Source of the DNA: Lentisphaeria bacterium
Lineage (GTDB): Bacteria > Verrucomicrobiota > Lentisphaeria > Victivallales > UBA1829
Length of the DNA: 64,000 nt
Assembly (NCBI GenBank): GCA_003526375.1
Contig: DPDG01000114.1
Location: 60,818-124,817, forward strand
Reading direction: 5' to 3'
Translations under genes and position numbers: made by a program
Notes under the pieces: model-generated
Database searches by the model: none
What the model was told of the DNA's origin: nothing
What the model saw: the letters and a program-made list of their open reading frames with translations, nothing else
In this document: positions 59,307-64,000 of the stretch, in pieces
Position numbering within the stretch: position 1 is the first letter of the stretch
Layout: every line of letters starts with the position of its first letter

Positions 59307-60434
59307 ATGAAAAAAACAAAAGTCGGTATTATCGGATGCGGAATGATTTCCGATACCTATTTCAAGGCGTCTCAAACTTTCAATATGATAGAGGTTGTCG
59401 CATGTTCCGACATCATCCCGGAGCGCTCCGCCGCAAAAAAGGAGCTTTACGGTGTCCAGAACATGACCAACGAAGAACTCCTGGCGATTCCGGAAATTGA
59501 GATTGTCCTGAATCTTACGCCTCCGCAGGTTCACTCCGGAATTGCGATGGATACACTGAACGCGGGCAAACACGCCTATTCGGAAAAACCTTTCGGAGTC
59601 GATTTTGACGATGCCGCAAAGGTAATGGCTCTGGCGAAGGAAAAGGGGCTCCGTGTGGGATGCGCTCCCGATACTTTCCTCGGCGGCGGACAGCAGACCG
59701 CACGCAAACTCATTGATGACGGGTGGATCGGCAAACCGCTTTCCGGCACTGCGATCGTCATGGGGCGCGGACCTGAAAAATGGGGACAGGCGCCGTTCTT
59801 CTATGACTACGGTGCGGGGCCGATGCTTGACCTCGGACCGTACTATATGACGGCTCTCGTCAATATGCTCGGCCCGGCGAAGAGTGTCATTGCCGTCACG
59901 ACCAAAGGTTTCGATTACCGCACTTTCGGCGCGGAAGTCGGTGAGACCTATAAGGACAAATACAAACCGTTTGATAAATATCCCGTGAATGTGACGACGC
60001 ACCTGACGGGTGTTGTCGAGTTCCAGTGCGGTGCGGTGATCACGGTGATCACCAGCTTCGACTGTTACAGGCACGGACACAGCCCGATTGAGATCTATGG
60101 AACCGAGGGATCGCTTCAGGTTCCCGATCCGAATACATTCGGCGGTCCGGTGAAAGTGTTCCGGAAAGGCGATACGGAGTCGGATTGGAAGAATGTCCCG
60201 CTGACCCATATCTACACGGAAAACAGCCGCAGCATCGGAGCCGCCGATATGGCAATGGCTCTCCGCAGCGGACGTAAACACCGTGTCAACGGCGAACTTG
60301 CAAACCATGTTCTTGAGATCATGCTTTCTTTCGACAAGTCCAGCAAACTGGGCAGGAAAGTAGAACTCGTGACAACTTGTGAACGTCCGGAGCCGCTGCC
60401 TCTCGGACTTGACAAGGGCGAACTTCCTGAATAA
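59307..60434 (+). CDS. Gfo/Idh/MocA-family NAD(P)-dependent oxidoreductase
   Basis: KVGIIGCGMISDTYF Rossmann motif and the EKPF motif. Start set at ATG 59307. Confidence 0.85.
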   Translation: MKKTKVGIIGCGMISDTYFKASQTFNMIEVVACSDIIPERSAAKKELYGVQNMTNEELLAIPEIEIVLNLTPPQVHSGIAMDTLNAGKHAYSEKPFGVDFDDAAKVMALAKEKGLRVGCAPDTFLGGGQQTARKLIDDGWIGKPLSGTAIVMGRGPEKWGQAPFFYDYGAGPMLDLGPYYMTALVNMLGPAKSVIAVTTKGFDYRTFGAEVGETYKDKYKPFDKYPVNVTTHLTGVVEFQCGAVITVITSFDCYRHGHSPIEIYGTEGSLQVPDPNTFGGPVKVFRKGDTESDWKNVPLTHIYTENSRSIGAADMAMALRSGRKHRVNGELANHVLEIMLSFDKSSKLGRKVELVTTCERPEPLPLGLDKGELPE

Positions 60435-60453
60435 ACTTCAGCAAGTGCGAAAA

Positions 60454-60502
60454 CAAAGGAAAGAACTCCTGAAGAGGCAGTTCTTTCCTTTGCCGTTTTT
60501 AT
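60454..60502 (+). terminator. Rho-independent terminator
   Basis: 14-bp stem CAAAGGAAAGAACT / AGTTCTTTCCTTTG with an 11-nt loop, then CCGTTTTTA. Confidence 0.7.
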
Positions 60503-60550
60503 TTTCCTGTTTTGCCGTGCAACAAAATTCATTCTTTTTCATAAGCGCTA

Positions 60551-60579
60551 TTGAATAAATGGGCTTATGGTATTATAAT
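60551..60579 (+). promoter_or_regulatory. Candidate tRNA promoter
   Basis: TTGAAT, a 17-nt spacer, then TATAAT ending 18 nt before tRNA position 1. Confidence 0.45.
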
Positions 60580-60596
60580 ACCAAGTTCCAAGAGAA

Positions 60597-60673
60597 GCAC
60601 CCGTAGCTCAGTTGGATAGAGCGTCTGCCTCCGGAGTAGAAGGTCGTGAGTTCAAGTCTCGCCGGGTGCACCA
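60597..60673 (+). tRNA. tRNA-Arg (anticodon CCG), CCA encoded
   Basis: Hand-folded cloverleaf: acceptor GCACCCG/CGGGTGC, D arm GCTC-AGTTGGATA-GAGC, anticodon arm TCTGC-CTCCGGA-GTAGA (anticodon CCG), T arm GTGAG-TTCAAGT-CTCGC, discriminator A, CCA. Confidence 0.93.
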
Positions 60674-60910
60674 TCTTATTTTATTTCTAAGTGCTTATCT
60701 ACAAGCTATTTATAAAGCTTAATAACTTATCGTTTGCCTTTCATTGTTTTTCGATTGTTTTCCATTCTTTTCGAGTGTCAAAATACCGTGAAGGTCTACC
60801 GAACGTCCACCACTTTTTTGAATCTACCCCTCAAGTTACTTTTTTCAAGTATTTTCTTCAGGAATGATCTAATCGCATGTCTCTATCCCTGTAGTTTGGC
60901 AGGAAATGGG

Positions 60911-60997
60911 CTCCTCGGACGCATCACGGACGTTTCTCGGACGCTCCCCGGACGGATAGAAAGCTTGCAATTTGAGGCTCCTCGGACGTTTCGGACG
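60911..60997 (+). repeat. CGGACG direct-repeat array (4 copies at exactly 11-bp spacing plus a CGGACGTTTCGGACG dyad)
   Basis: CGGAC starts at 60916, 60927, 60938, 60949, 60983 and 60992. Both blocks open with CTCCTCGGACG. Confidence 0.9.
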
Positions 60998-61100
60998 CTT
61001 TGTCGCAATTTTTTATATATGCGCAACCTACGCGCACTCGCGCGAGGCTGTGCCCAAAGGAAGGAGATCATACTACCCCCTGCTGTATTCATAAGTCACC

Positions 61101-61147
61101 CCGAACTTTCCGAACTTTTCCGAACTTGTTCCGAACTTCCTCCGAAC
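61101..61147 (+). repeat. CCGAAC(T/A)T direct-repeat array, 5 copies at 9-11-bp spacing
   Basis: CCGAAC starts at 61101, 61110, 61120, 61131 and 61142. Confidence 0.9.
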
Positions 61148-61412
61148 ATGATTAGCCTCAAAAATGGCAAAGTTAGGAGGAAAAGGCTGAAAAAGATGTG
61201 CAGACAAGCTATTCTTATCATTTAAACAGTAACATTACACGGAGGATACCATGAGAGTTGATGCTTTTCTGAATGCATTCGATGCCATTGCCGCGAGTGT
61301 TGGACTTGCGTAGACTCCCCCAGAAGACAGCCCGTTTGCACAGTAAAGGTAGGAAGGCGCTGACTGTCGCGGATATCAGCCATGGCTCCATTTGTCTTAT
61401 CCATGGATTCTT

Positions 61413-61482
61413 GGGACGGTAGTGGGACGGATTTAGGACTGGTAAATAGCAGAGAAATGGGCGTATGGGACGGATGGGACGG
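61413..61482 (+). repeat. GGGACGG direct-repeat array
   Basis: GGGACGG at 61413, 61424, 61467 and 61476, with a degenerate AGGACTGG at 61435. Spacings are 11, 11 and 9 bp. Confidence 0.85.
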
Positions 61483-61542
61483 ATATTTTTGATTTCTTGG
61501 TTTGCATGCGCCTGCGCGCGTGTAAGCGCGCATAAGCTAAGC

Positions 61543-61682
61543 TCGGACATTTCGGACACATATTTTCAAGTCCTTATAAGGGCAGATAGAGACGTTTATT
61601 TTTCTCCGGACATTTCGGACCGTTTTTCAGAACTCTTATATAGACACCTTTTTGCGATTCTATCTCTCCGGACATTTCGGAC
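61543..61682 (+). repeat. Degenerate ~62-64-bp tandem units each carrying CGGACATTTCGGAC
   Basis: Exact 14-mer at 61543, 61607 and 61669. The inter-copy sequences are related (TTTTCA..CTTATA). Confidence 0.9.
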
Positions 61683-61746
61683 ATATATTTACTTACGCGT
61701 GTGGAAAAAAGTATATATTGGACAATGGCAGGGGACATATGTATTT

Positions 61747-61857
61747 TTTTTTGTTCCTGATAAGGAGTTTGAAAAAAGTGTCCGTTTTGTCCATGAGTCC
61801 CCTATTAGCCCTTTTTTGTTCCTAATAAGGAGTTTGAAAAAAGTGTCCGTTTTGTCC
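61747..61857 (+). repeat. Two 46-bp direct repeats (65-bp period) carrying the dyad in inverted orientation
   Basis: TTTTTTGTTCCT(G/A)ATAAGGAGTTTGAAAAAAGTGTCCGTTTTGTCC at 61747-61792 and 61812-61857, with one mismatch. GTCCGTTTTGTCC is the reverse complement of GGACAAAACGGAC. Confidence 0.9.
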
Positions 61858-61901
61858 GTGAACCTCCTGTCATACACCACCGTATCAACTCACTGCATGG
61901 T

Positions 61902-61944
61902 AAAAAAAAGACGGAGGGAAGGCTTGTACTCCTTCGACCTCCGT
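61902..61944 (-). terminator. Rho-independent terminator of the minus-strand DUF932 operon
   Basis: On the minus strand: ACGGAGG-TC-GAAGG-AGTACAAG-CCTTC-CCTCCGT followed by CTTTTTTTT. Confidence 0.75.
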
Positions 61945-62083
61945 AATGCTTTGGACATCCTCATGGCGCATCACTTCATGGGGCGGGTCTTCCGGACAGG
62001 AGGGCACAACAGGAGGCCTCCCACCGGAATCTCTTCACGCAGGGAAGAGTCAGCGGGACCTTATGATTGTTTCGCAAATGATA

Positions 62084-62806
62084 TCAGCTCCAGAGCTCCG
62101 GTCGGTTGCCGTCCAAACCGAAGCAGCGGTTCAGAGCGGCGTAGGAGACGTCCACCCGTTGCGGGGTGTATTTCCTGACCGTCTCCGTGAACGCATTCAA
62201 CAGGCTCCATCGGGTCGGCTCGGCGAACTCCTCGTGCGAGGGATTCTTGAATTCCTTGTACACCGGTACAATATCCGAGCTGTTGATTGCACCGAGTTCT
62301 GCGGCTCTGACGATTCGGCTTCTGGCTTCGTCGTCGTTGTCCAGATACGCCACTTTCAAGTCCTCGCAGACATTCTCCAATATCAGGAACTCGTTTTCGA
62401 GCTCATCGACGGCACGGTTCACCAGATCGCACAGCTCAATCCGCGAGGTGTGGCGACGCTTCAGAACCATGCTCCCGCCGAACGCCATGTTACTGCACAC
62501 CATCACACTGATTCCGGCTGTCAGCCCCACGGAAAAGCTCTTGTCGTGGCTGTTTCTGAGCCCGATACAGCGACACCATTCCAGCGAGGAACTCCTGTTG
62601 ATCTTCATCACGCCGAACAGCTTCGCACCCTCACGTGCCAAGCCGAACTGCTCCTCCAGAATCACCCACTGATGCGCCTGCACCACCTCCGTTACCGCCT
62701 CAATGACCTCATAATGCGGAACCGGTTTCCAGCTCGAAGTCGCCTCCGGCGTCGGAACCAGCGCGATTTCTTCCGTGTGGCGTAGTGACCACCGCCGCCC
62801 ATGCAA
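62084..62806 (-). CDS. DUF932-domain protein (phage/plasmid/ICE-associated)
   Basis: IGLRNSHDKSFSVGLTAGISVMVCSNMAFGG...KRRHT is the DUF932 core as I remember it. Confidence 0.65.
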   Translation of the reverse strand: MHGRRWSLRHTEEIALVPTPEATSSWKPVPHYEVIEAVTEVVQAHQWVILEEQFGLAREGAKLFGVMKINRSSSLEWCRCIGLRNSHDKSFSVGLTAGISVMVCSNMAFGGSMVLKRRHTSRIELCDLVNRAVDELENEFLILENVCEDLKVAYLDNDDEARSRIVRAAELGAINSSDIVPVYKEFKNPSHEEFAEPTRWSLLNAFTETVRKYTPQRVDVSYAALNRCFGLDGNRPELWS

Positions 62807-62821
62807 AGATGACTCATCGTC

Positions 62822-63607
62822 TCACCCCTTCCTCACGTGCCACAAACGGCACTTGTTTTTGTAAGGACAATCCGCGCAGGAAAAACCTGTCTCATTCGGA
62901 TAGAACACCTCCCTCTGCACCGCCGATTCGATTGTCTGCGCCAGCAATTCAAAACGCAGGAAATCCGCCTCATTGCGCTCGGTATAGTGCGACTCCACGC
63001 ATGGCGTTCTGGTCTTCGTCACGATATCGAACCGGAACAGCGGACTCCTGCCGGTCAGTTTTGTACGGGCGTAACAAAAAGCGGTCGCCTGCAAGTCCTG
63101 ATGCGCCTTGCCCGCAGACCACTTCGCGCCTGCCGTTTTCCAATCGACGATATACTCATGACCGCCGTCCTCCACGATCAGATCATACTCCCCGATCAGC
63201 GGCTTCGACAGCCCCGGAATCTCCACGGAAAACCCTTCCTCTACGCTCCTGACCGCAAAGTCATCCTGCCAGTTTTCGAGGCAGACAGTGAGCATGGCAA
63301 ATCCCGTTTGCAGCAGAGACCCGTAATCTTCTTTCGGCTTGTAGACGAGGTGTTCCACGGCATTGGTTTCCGCCTTGAAATACGCCTCGAACAGCTCTTT
63401 TGCATCTGCGATTTTCAGCTGCGGACCGCTCCTTGCACGCTGACTCAACGCCGCATGGAAGGCACGCCCGAACGGGAAGCAGCTGCACGTGTGTTCCGGC
63501 TTTGCATGTTCGAGATACTGGAACTTGAATTTCAGCGGGCATGTCAGGTAGCAGTGGAACGCCGAATACGACCAGTGCGGTTCCTTGCGCAACTCATTCA
63601 GGTTCAT
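62822..63607 (-). CDS. PD-(D/E)XK nuclease, Cas4/RecB-like with Fe-S cysteines
   Basis: N-terminal Cys (YLTCPLKFKF), nuclease core IGEYDLIVEDGGHEYIVDWKT, and C-terminal CADCPYKNKC (CX2CX5C). Confidence 0.8.
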   Translation of the reverse strand: MNLNELRKEPHWSYSAFHCYLTCPLKFKFQYLEHAKPEHTCSCFPFGRAFHAALSQRARSGPQLKIADAKELFEAYFKAETNAVEHLVYKPKEDYGSLLQTGFAMLTVCLENWQDDFAVRSVEEGFSVEIPGLSKPLIGEYDLIVEDGGHEYIVDWKTAGAKWSAGKAHQDLQATAFCYARTKLTGRSPLFRFDIVTKTRTPCVESHYTERNEADFLRFELLAQTIESAVQREVFYPNETGFSCADCPYKNKCRLWHVRKG

Positions 63608-63608
63608 T

Positions 63609-64000
63609 TCACGCCGCCTTTCCGTTGAACTCGTTGATCGCCAGACTGCACTGATTGCGCGACAGCTCCTCTACGGAATTCACCCGGAACCTTGCCGCGA
63701 TCTGCTGAGGCGTGACACGGGCGTCCCTTGCGAGGTCGAGCAGATACTTGATCTGTTTCGGAGACGCGGGACCATCAACATTCTGACTGCCTTTCCCCTT
63801 GCCGTAACTGCCCTTTCCACCGGAATAACTCTGTGACGATTGTGGTATTTGCTGTACAGCCGTACAATTACCGCTATGCAGCTCCGTTTCGACACTGTTT
63901 CGCACAAGATCAAAGGTCTCATGGATGCGGCTCTGAAGCTGTTCCGCCGTCAGACCGTCCGGGATTTCCACCTCAATGGAGGCGTGGTAGCTCTGGCTGG
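63609..64000 (-). CDS. Hypothetical protein, probably 5'-truncated by the right window edge
   Basis: The frame stays open upstream of the GTG at 63971 to the window end. Gly/Lys-rich linker (GGKGSYGKGKGS), then PKQIKYLLDLARDARVTPQQIAARF. The stop abuts the nuclease start. Confidence 0.5.
   Translation of the reverse strand, partial: SQSYHASIEVEIPDGLTAEQLQSRIHETFDLVRNSVETELHSGNCTAVQQIPQSSQSYSGGKGSYGKGKGSQNVDGPASPKQIKYLLDLARDARVTPQQIAARFRVNSVEELSRNQCSLAINEFNGKAA

Follow-up and report, generated by a model that had tools for sequence, protein, structure and literature searches.

The window analyzed here is a stretch of 64,000 nucleotides (64 kb) of contig DPDG01000114.1, assigned to a Lentisphaeria bacterium. 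Near its right end, a tRNA-Arg(CCG) gene is followed by a field of short repeats about 1.2 kb long, then by the terminator of a DUF932 gene and by further genes on the minus strand. We compared this field with empty integration sites, with related loci and with viral contigs, all of which are denoted by L numbers below. The comparisons place the field at one end of a mobile element that has lost a replication operon in this copy, and suggest that the repeats are probably the remains of an attachment-site (att) arm and of a replication origin.

From the tRNA rightwards, the first repeats are phased T tracts (60739-60778; period 10, 4 copies according to Tandem Repeats Finder). They are followed by CGGAC at 60916, 60927, 60938 and 60949, spaced by exactly 11 bp, with CGGACGTTTCGGAC found also at 60983 (Tandem Repeats Finder reports the 11-bp array at 60910-60954), and then by five copies of CCGAAC across 61101-61147 with spacings of 9, 10, 11 and 11. 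GGGACG occurs at 61413, 61424, 61467 and 61476, and a GGGACGG repeat was reported at 61457-61484 by the same program; the first-pass annotation of this DNA, made from the letters alone, had described a single continuous array at this place, but the repeats, which are real, form two pairs 43 nt apart. Exact copies of CGGACATTTCGGAC lie at 61544, 61607 and 61669, in units that begin, according to the repeat search, at 61542, 61605 and 61667. Two 57-nt repeats at 61747 and 61812, which are 91% identical and each contain GTCCGTTTTGTCC, complete the series. Reading of 60400-62200 also revealed a GC hairpin (61513-61532) and, at 61902-61944, the terminator.

These repeats are real and lie far beyond chance expectation. 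Arrays of 5-mers with at least 4 copies at 9-12 bp spacing were found in the 64-kb window only at 60916-61147, and comparable arrays appeared in none of 50 simulated windows and in none of 500 simulated regions. All of the arrays that the first-pass annotation had listed could be located. All four exact occurrences of CGGACNTTTCGGAC in the 64 kb are inside the field, and the degenerate motif [CT]CG[GA]AC is present 17 times as compared to 4.3 expected, making the field the densest 1.2 kb of the window. The annotation had suggested that the arrays might represent several specificities. However, because CCGAAC reads GTTCGG on the opposite strand, all of the cores fit into a single family of motifs, CG(G/A)AC or TTCGGA(C/A).

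Open reading frames (ORFs) within the field gave no Pfam match, and the insertions and deletions among its relatives have lengths that are not multiples of three. The earlier statement that the field holds no credible gene is borne out to this extent, except that about 140 nt (61252-61390) are the remnant of two deleted genes. Searching Rfam at permissive thresholds retrieved the tRNA and nothing else in the field, and RNA folding of eight field segments was no better than that of shuffled sequences (z-scores -1.4 to +0.9). Using blastn against phage and plasmid records, we found no match to the field; relatives with the same arrays were recovered elsewhere (see below). Two DnaA-box-like sites with one mismatch each are present (60695-60703 and 61700-61708, the latter on the minus strand), a weak enrichment; the site at 61700 sits in the AT-rich centre of the proposed origin and is not conserved in L041 or L025. 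A CRISPR-like (clustered regularly interspaced short palindromic repeats) mini-array was considered for the 62-63-bp units and rejected by eye, with only 16 nt per unit conserved and the units following a helicase gene in relatives. A promoter reading of the same units, with CGGACA as a -35 box followed by TATA-like hexamers, was also dropped, as a scan for sigma-70 promoters gave it no support.

Insertion into tRNA-Arg and the family of related elements

The source contig stems from a human gut metagenome and ends about 1 kb past the window. To obtain empty sites we used the oxidoreductase gene beside the tRNA, through which ten contigs of the same species were retrieved. Seven of the ten are empty, with an AraC-type gene directly after tRNA-Arg. 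Identity between these sites and the window covers the tRNA and four further bases, up to 60677, and ends at 60678, so that everything from 60678 rightwards is inserted DNA. The field is therefore the tRNA-proximal end of a mobile element integrated into the tRNA-Arg(CCG) of a gut Victivallales (Lentisphaerae) bacterium, in agreement with the earlier assignment of the field to the adjacent element. No second copy of the tRNA 3' end was found within the window, beyond which the contig continues for only about 1 kb, and examining nine loci for att repeats yielded little of use apart from a 16-bp repeat in L012.

Searching with the DUF932 protein against one genome per species yielded 26 related loci, nearly all of them in Victivallales or Lentisphaeria genome bins. 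The 26 loci have a module in common, always in the same order: a beta-clamp-like gene, a gene for a protein of about 170 aa, a PD-(D/E)XK nuclease, DUF932 and the terminator. Past this module comes a variable stretch that ends at a tRNA gene (Lys, Arg, Val, Phe, Gln or Met), whose 3' end points towards the element. The variable stretch may carry a D5-type helicase, a primase-D5 helicase with a PIF1 helicase, or a YagK/YfjJ-like protein with an integrase, and a short array of its own seems to accompany each of the replication cassettes. Other variable stretches hold cargo, namely sigma factor/kinase pairs, toxin-antitoxin genes and reverse transcriptases, and in L019, L024 and L025 the stretch is non-coding, measures 0.66-0.8 kb and contains the same kind of repeats as the field. 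The tRNA-side arm is homologous among L006, L019, L024, L025, L042 and L043, although these are integrated at tRNA-Arg(ACG), tRNA-Gln, tRNA-Met and tRNA-Phe; the homologous segments comprise phased T tracts and CATG(G/T)CTCTATCC. One relative, L044, is complete. It spans 15,122 bp between perfect 51-bp repeats of the tRNA-Met 3' end at both bounds, with a 508-aa integrase at the far end and the T-tract arm at the tRNA end.

The first-pass annotation had also considered a ParR/ParB-type centromere. The field and a partition centromere (ParR, ParG or omega type) would have in common the grammar of the repeats (6-7-bp cores at 9-11 bp) and nothing else. Neither the window nor the complete 15.1-kb L044, nor any of the related loci examined, has a gene for ParA, ParM, ParB or a ribbon-helix-helix protein, and the element is maintained by integration; we consider this explanation extremely improbable.

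Some further features of the family and of the integration site deserve mention. Two contigs of the same species (L036, 9289-17128, and L038) carry at the same tRNA-Arg(CCG) a different element, which has no DNA similarity to the field. It encodes a 482-aa tyrosine integrase beside the tRNA, a 96-aa protein and a DUF3854/DUF5906 primase-helicase, as well as a family-A DNA polymerase, a Ser/Thr kinase and a sigma factor, and the tRNA 3' end shows substitutions there, as expected if the element supplies its own copy. The clamp-like protein that opens the conserved module is divergent and 450-480 aa long (L004 7279-8637, L020 6733-8169, L044 13738-15183), with Pfam DNA_pol3_beta detected only in its most canonical copy. 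For the 168-aa protein of the window, the minus-strand neighbours of which are the DUF932 and PD-(D/E)XK genes, annotation assigned no function. The PD-(D/E)XK protein had no relatives among viral contigs, and literature searches on DUF932 and on the repeat motif gave nothing useful. A reverse transcriptase (RVT_1, 482 aa; L044 16470-17918) lies beside the integrase within the 15.1-kb element, and ORFs resembling reverse transcriptases follow DUF932 in L021 and L022. In L012 (15483-15511) and L013 (13923-13951), TGTGGAA is repeated three times at 10-11 bp (TTCCACA on the opposite strand, DnaA-box-like) between the tRNA-Phe arm and a PriCT_2/D5_N/DUF5906 primase-helicase gene, and three copies of ATAGCT lie upstream of the YagK/YfjJ-like gene in L004 and L018.

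Loss of the replication operon in the window copy

A metagenome scan for the conserved arm motif retrieved L042, and a protein search then led to L043, a locus 91-94% identical to the window. In L043 the tRNA is followed by the arm, four CGGACG copies with the dyad, the AT-rich stretch with its GC palindrome and four CCGAAC copies; then come a ribosome-binding site, a 267-aa gene, a 477-aa DUF3987 gene, a hairpin, three CGGACATTTCGGAC units, an inverted unit, the terminator and DUF932. A replication operon of 2.4 kb thus stands between the upstream arrays and the three downstream units. Whether orthologous regions are coding or free of repeats was a point raised by the first-pass annotation; L043 keeps the same arrays and has the operon between them.

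Only fragments of this operon are left in the window. The ATG at 61252 opens just 20 codons of a fusion ORF (61252-61314), in which 61252-61292 represents the start of the 267-aa gene; the following 61293-61390 derives from the DUF3987 gene, covering residues 392 to about 425 in the winged-helix domain. When the L043 helicase (P0001) was used as a tblastn query, its residues 392-445 aligned to 61294-61425 (E = 1.3e-9). Since the scar joins the start of the 267-aa gene to the 3' part of the helicase gene, about 2.07 kb have been lost. The final 164 nt of the helicase gene, together with the hairpin, have also given way to a 152-nt segment (61391-61542) that is absent from L043, occurs elsewhere only in L041, and is a diverged paralogue of the array module at 60903-61050 (repeat family D8). 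These results show that the window carries a deletion derivative that lost its replication operon, and it is this deletion that brought the upstream and downstream clusters together. The first-pass annotation had taken the string of arrays for a multi-protein or multi-specificity platform; their concatenation is instead secondary, as the clusters are separated by the operon in L043, and the window has lost the operon and gained a patch of diverged arrays. The resulting layout is summarized in Table 1.

Table 1. Map of the tRNA gene, the repeat field and the adjoining gene module (window positions)
Feature	Positions	Strand	Basis and remarks
tRNA-Arg (CCG), integration target	60597..60673	+	ARAGORN, Rfam; empty-site identity (L030 alignment) continues to 60677
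Attachment-site arm of the integrated element: phased T-tract array 60739-60778; GTCYACC x2 at ~60795; ACTTTTTTSAA x2 at 60812 and 60838	60678..60905	.	Diverges from empty site at 60678
CGGACG x4 at 11 bp and dyad CGGACGTTTCGGACG, putative iterons upstream of the lost replication operon	60906..60997	+	
Spacer: AT-rich core TTTTTTATATAT and alternating GC-rich palindromic sequence	60998..61100	.	Equivalent AT-rich stretch and purine/pyrimidine palindrome in L006, L019, L024
CCGAAC x5 at 9-11 bp (GTTCGG on minus strand)	61101..61147	+	4 copies in L043; 5 in L041 and L042
Leader region of the lost operon, with GGAGGA (61241-61246) as ribosome-binding site	61148..61251	+	92% identical to sequence directly upstream of the 267-aa gene (L043, L042)
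Deletion scar	61252..61390	+	blastn against L042/L043, junctions, tblastn
152-nt replacement segment: GGGACGG pairs (61413/61424, 61467/61476), AT-rich stretch, hairpin 61513-61532	61391..61542	+	
Three 62-63-bp units, one CGGACATTTCGGAC each; left iteron set of the proposed origin	61543..61682	+	94% identical to L043 11527-11772
AT-rich centre of the proposed origin	61683..61778	.	69% A+T against 48% in the whole window
Two inverted double sites GGACAAAACGGAC; right iteron set of the proposed origin	61779..61858	-	In 57-nt repeats 61747-61803 and 61812-61868 (families D3, I1); also in L025 and L041; L043 has a single partial copy
Intrinsic terminator of the DUF932 gene; serves convergent genes in intact relatives	61889..61949	-	Conserved in L006, L008, L010, L011, L019, L024, L025, L044
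Conserved gene module of the element: DUF932 62084-62806, PD-(D/E)XK nuclease 62822-63607, 168-aa protein	62084..64000	-	Pfam; 168-aa gene starts past window end, beta-clamp-like gene further on (contig extension L001)

At least three independent events removed the replication genes. One affected the window and L041. In L025, recombination between iterons seems to have eliminated all that lay between the upstream array and the third downstream unit, and a different route led to the loss in L019 and L024. L041 carries the same deleted version as the window, 94% identical to it, behind a tRNA-Gln-type arm beside a prophage. L019, without a helicase, and L006, with one, have the same upstream array and come from one genome bin.

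Two of these loci show additional rearrangements. In L041 (2338-9737) the field is joined, through a degenerate 15-24-nt fragment of a tRNA-Gln 3' end, to phage genes coding for a TET-associated glycosyltransferase-like protein, the small and large terminase subunits and a portal protein. The terminase and portal genes raised the idea that the element is a complete phage, which was rejected, as the degenerate tRNA-Gln junction fits better with a phage that entered the genome between the tRNA and a resident element. In L040, the CGGAC array has six copies and is immediately followed by an inserted transposase gene of the ISL3 family (966-2186).

Such a history could mean that the field is functionless in this copy, and that it represents decaying debris in which the number and variety of the arrays result from slippage and illegitimate recombination among repeats. 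The recurrent losses described above would agree with this, as would the scar and the patched-in segment of the window, the insertion sequence element beside the array in L040 and the failure to find a helicase in the window. We nevertheless regard it as unlikely. The iteron cores are all intact in helicase-less copies, the deleted version in L041 sits on another arm type and has therefore persisted and moved or recombined, and the pair of L019 and L006 shows helicase-less and helicase-bearing copies with the same upstream array in one bin. Moreover, decay concerns only the present-day activity of the field, and is compatible with its descent from an origin.

Repeats that follow DUF3987 helicase genes

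The 477-aa protein of L043 is a member of the DUF3987 family, MCM-like helicases of superfamily 6 (SF6). Its AlphaFold model (mean predicted local distance difference test score, pLDDT, of 82) has a C-terminal helix-helix-helix-wing domain, and the best structural matches are MCM subunits, archaeal MCM and ORC4. Published analysis places the DUF3987 proteins among the replicative SF6 helicases and assigns them a C-terminal winged helix (PMC4889955); 5'-3' helicase activity was demonstrated for one member of the family (PMC11724360).

Arrays of the field's motif directly follow the genes of this family. The three CGGACATTTCGGAC units of L043 begin 93 nt after the helicase stop codon, and in L044, L048, L050 and L052 the arrays begin 15-40 nt past it. 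The DUF3987 helicases of the latter four loci are only 43-47% identical to P0001, and CG(G/A)AC arrays nonetheless follow their stop codons: one GTTCGG and then CCGAAC three times in L044 and four times in L050, and 3-4 copies of TTCGGAC or TTCGGAT at 12 bp, with one inverted copy, in L048 and L052. Within 260 nt past the stop codon, all five DUF3987 loci examined contain more copies of [CT]CG[GA]AC than expected (Poisson P 0.04 to 2e-6). These results show an association of the iterons with the helicase genes. The CGGAC cores show no change across nine relatives, in contrast to the spacers and to the copy number, which ranges from 3 to 6.

In three contigs (L048 1-9563, L050 8001-17407, L052 1312-9566), modules of an HTH_17 (AlpA-like) gene and DUF3987 adjoin type I-E or I-C CRISPR-Cas operons, with reverse-transcriptase genes in two of the three contexts (L048/L049, L052).

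The arrays might alternatively be operators or other regulatory sites, coated by a transcription factor of the element such as the 267-aa protein or an HTH_17/AlpA-like protein, whose binding would control the replication operon and the convergent transcription of the helicase and DUF932 genes. In line with this, the start codon of the operon in L043 and L042 is preceded, at a distance of 100-340 nt, by the CGGACG and CCGAAC arrays, several CGGAC dyads have TATA-like hexamers 16 nt further on, L006 keeps the upstream array before a different type of helicase, and an HTH_17 gene precedes the helicase in L044 and L048-L052. Yet the arrays common to all five helicase loci follow a stop codon and are not at promoters, none of which were predicted at the units by the sigma-70 scan. 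The two candidate factors are also not shared, the HTH_17 gene being absent from L043 and the 267-aa gene from L044-L052, so that the helicase is the only common partner. The probability that we assign to a regulatory role of this kind is low.

To find the motif outside the family we scanned viral contigs for two copies of CGGACATTTCGGAC, and, less strictly, for three copies of TTCGGA(C); the looser scan matched at least 120 viral contigs, 80 of which were examined. The stricter scan retrieved L003, where the cluster follows an AAA_25 helicase gene. Some of the three-copy matches were coding repeats within ORFs, and the intergenic ones fell into two classes. In the first class, TTCGGAC arrays lie 3-100 nt past the stop codon of PrimPol-PriCT_2-AAA_25, AAA_25 or DnaG-type primase-helicase genes, in unrelated phage contigs of 36-61% G+C. 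In the second class, the interval from a Rac-like integrase gene (Arm-DNA-bind_1) to the prophage end contains three tandem copies, which are probably arm-type sites of the integrase.

Several phage contigs (L059, L064, L078, L086, L088, L124 and L003) have TTCGGAC/GTCCGAA clusters of 6-12 copies in both orientations around a small palindrome, and a C-terminal domain of about 70 aa, resembling a winged helix, is common to the phage AAA_25 proteins. A DNA-binding domain common to the phage AAA_25, D5-type and DUF3987 helicases was looked for, but no sequence similarity was found. Examples of the integrase-side copies are L056 (13292-13318), L072 (14284-14310) and about 25 similar viral contigs, in which the gene order is ExoVIII, Exc, Int.

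The arrays of the field could, by analogy to the integrase-side copies, be arm-type sites for a tyrosine integrase or excisionase, making the whole field one long attachment arm. The field does border directly on the att core at the tRNA, arm-type sites typically consist of tandem direct repeats spaced by about 10-11 bp, and three TTCGGAC copies stand beside the Rac-like integrase at the prophage end in many viral contigs. However, arm-type sites are expected within about 200 bp of the core and in both arms, whereas the helicase-proximal arrays are 3 kb (L043) or 6.6 kb (L044) away from it, and the CGGACG array starts 240 nt from the core, past the usual span of att arms. The repeat found in both arms of L044 is a different one, TTTGTAAAG, and no arm-binding domain is on record for the integrases of the element family. 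For the field as a whole we therefore consider this reading quite improbable. The T-tract array together with the paired repeats (60739-60850), on the other hand, plausibly fits such a position. Of the recombinase arm sites that the first-pass annotation had suggested, the first array, in the attachment arm, thus remains, and the helicase-proximal arrays do not.

A candidate replication origin

The explanation that we favor, with moderate confidence, is that the field consists of an att arm with phased T tracts and of an orphaned iteron origin in the style of Staphylococcus aureus pathogenicity islands (SaPIs) and phage P4, the replication genes of which were deleted. Among the possibilities named in the first-pass annotation, an iteron origin is the one that appears best supported by the comparative evidence. 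When the element integrates or excises, the phased T tracts and paired repeats of the arm (60678 to about 60905) would cause the DNA to bend and would be bound by the recombinase. The CG(G/A)AC iterons, spaced at about one helical turn, would be the cis-acting sites of the element's replication module, forming two clusters, each around an AT-rich stretch, that in intact relatives flank the operon of the 267-aa protein and the DUF3987 helicase. We propose that the C-terminal winged-helix domain of the helicase reads the iterons. The helicase-proximal cluster, with right-pointing sites, an AT-rich centre and left-pointing sites, has the layout on which self-loading helicase-initiators assemble and melt DNA, as at SaPI origins. 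With the operon deleted, the clusters joined and a diverged array-module patch added, the field would now be an origin without an initiator, inert unless a sibling element supplies the helicase, and the origin in the window is probably inactive and orphaned. We infer the iteron-binding protein, the origin activity and any present-day function from the comparisons made here.

The likeness to SaPIs extends to several particulars. The SaPI origin comprises 6-12 iterons of 5-6 nt immediately 3' of rep, oriented in opposite directions around an AT-rich centre, and the iterons are read by the winged helix of Rep (PMC9371898). Here, six CGGAC cores (61544-61682) and four GTCCG/GTCC cores (61779-61858) surround an AT-rich centre (61683-61778), right-pointing on its left side and inverted on its right side. 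The iterons are located just 3' of the helicase ORF in intact relatives, and a 98-nt remnant of this ORF is retained in the window; a helicase with a C-terminal winged helix is predicted by the P0001 model in the relative, and is missing from the window. In the upstream cluster, the orientation of the CCGAAC array relative to the CGGACG array is ambiguous.

The host element, too, is a small tRNA-integrated island, like SaPIs and other phage-inducible chromosomal islands. It differs from them in that the helicase is of the DUF3987/MCM-like (SF6) rather than the SaPI Rep type, that the iterons are double sites within 62-65-bp units, that a second cluster lies upstream of the operon, and that the helicase gene itself is deleted in the window. 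Phage P4, a satellite-type integrative element, has 8-bp iterons in two separate clusters, ori and crr, the latter with longer direct repeats that each contain iterons, and these are bound by a winged-helix domain at the C-terminus of the alpha replication helicase. Unlike the DUF3987 proteins, alpha is a superfamily 3 (SF3, D5-type) primase-helicase fusion, and the P4 iteron sequence differs from ours (TGTTCACC).

In gene content, the related loci resemble the CP4-57-type islands of E. coli, whose genes we take to be IntA, AlpA, YfjI (DUF3987), YfjJ and YfjQ (DUF932): a tyrosine integrase, an HTH_17/AlpA-like protein, DUF3987, YagK/YfjJ and DUF932 all occur in them, and the target is likewise a tRNA or tmRNA-type gene. 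The Lentisphaerae elements, however, add the beta-clamp-like gene and the PD-(D/E)XK nuclease, and their gene order differs. Iteron plasmid origins (RepA/pi/TrfA) similarly have direct repeats of variable copy number beside an AT-rich unwinding region, but the plasmid iterons are 17-22 bp long and their dedicated initiator recruits the host DnaB, as compared to cores of 5-8 bp here; DnaA boxes are usual in plasmid origins, whereas the field has two one-mismatch sites and no Rep_3-type initiator.

Several observations weigh against the field being an origin read by a DUF3987 helicase. The excess of core conservation among close relatives is only marginal: in the four closest sequences, 2 of 87 core positions vary as compared to 44 of 589 non-core positions (P = 0.048). 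L006 has the upstream CGGACG array in front of a helicase of the D5 type (SF3) that has no array after its stop codon and no detectable sequence similarity to DUF3987, so that the upstream array may serve another protein, or be a leftover, in that locus. The orientation of the sites is itself ambiguous, with GTTCGGAC being near-identical to its own reverse complement. The occurrence of the heptamer both past primase-helicase genes and beside integrases in phage contigs indicates that it does not by itself identify the binding protein. Finally, with respect to present-day function, the 64-kb window contains no helicase gene apart from the 98-nt remnant.

A variant of the origin explanation is that the helicase-less field is a working "parasitic origin", for whose replication sibling elements or incoming phages would provide their MCM-like helicases in trans, or a decoy that soaks up such helicases and serves in incompatibility or defence. 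The element would then have shed its helicase while keeping and adding iteron clusters with the slightly differing cores CGGACG, CCGAAC, GGGACGG and CGGACA. The presence of the deleted version in L041 behind another arm, together with that of L019 and L006 in one bin, makes the use of a helicase in trans possible, but we see only a slim chance that the field works in this way at present.

If the field is, as we favor, an att arm joined to an orphaned origin, it illustrates how an "ORF-free repeat field" can arise by the deletion of genes that stood between two sets of cis-acting sites, which calls for caution in scans for such fields. The analysis also describes a family of tRNA-integrated elements in the Lentisphaerae, a little-studied phylum of the gut. 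DUF3987 helicases are widespread in phages and genomic islands, and we found no description of their origins in the literature searched. The arrays described here offer a candidate origin for these MCM-like helicases and a candidate recognition motif, CG(G/A)AC or TTCGGAC at helical spacing, both of which can be tested.

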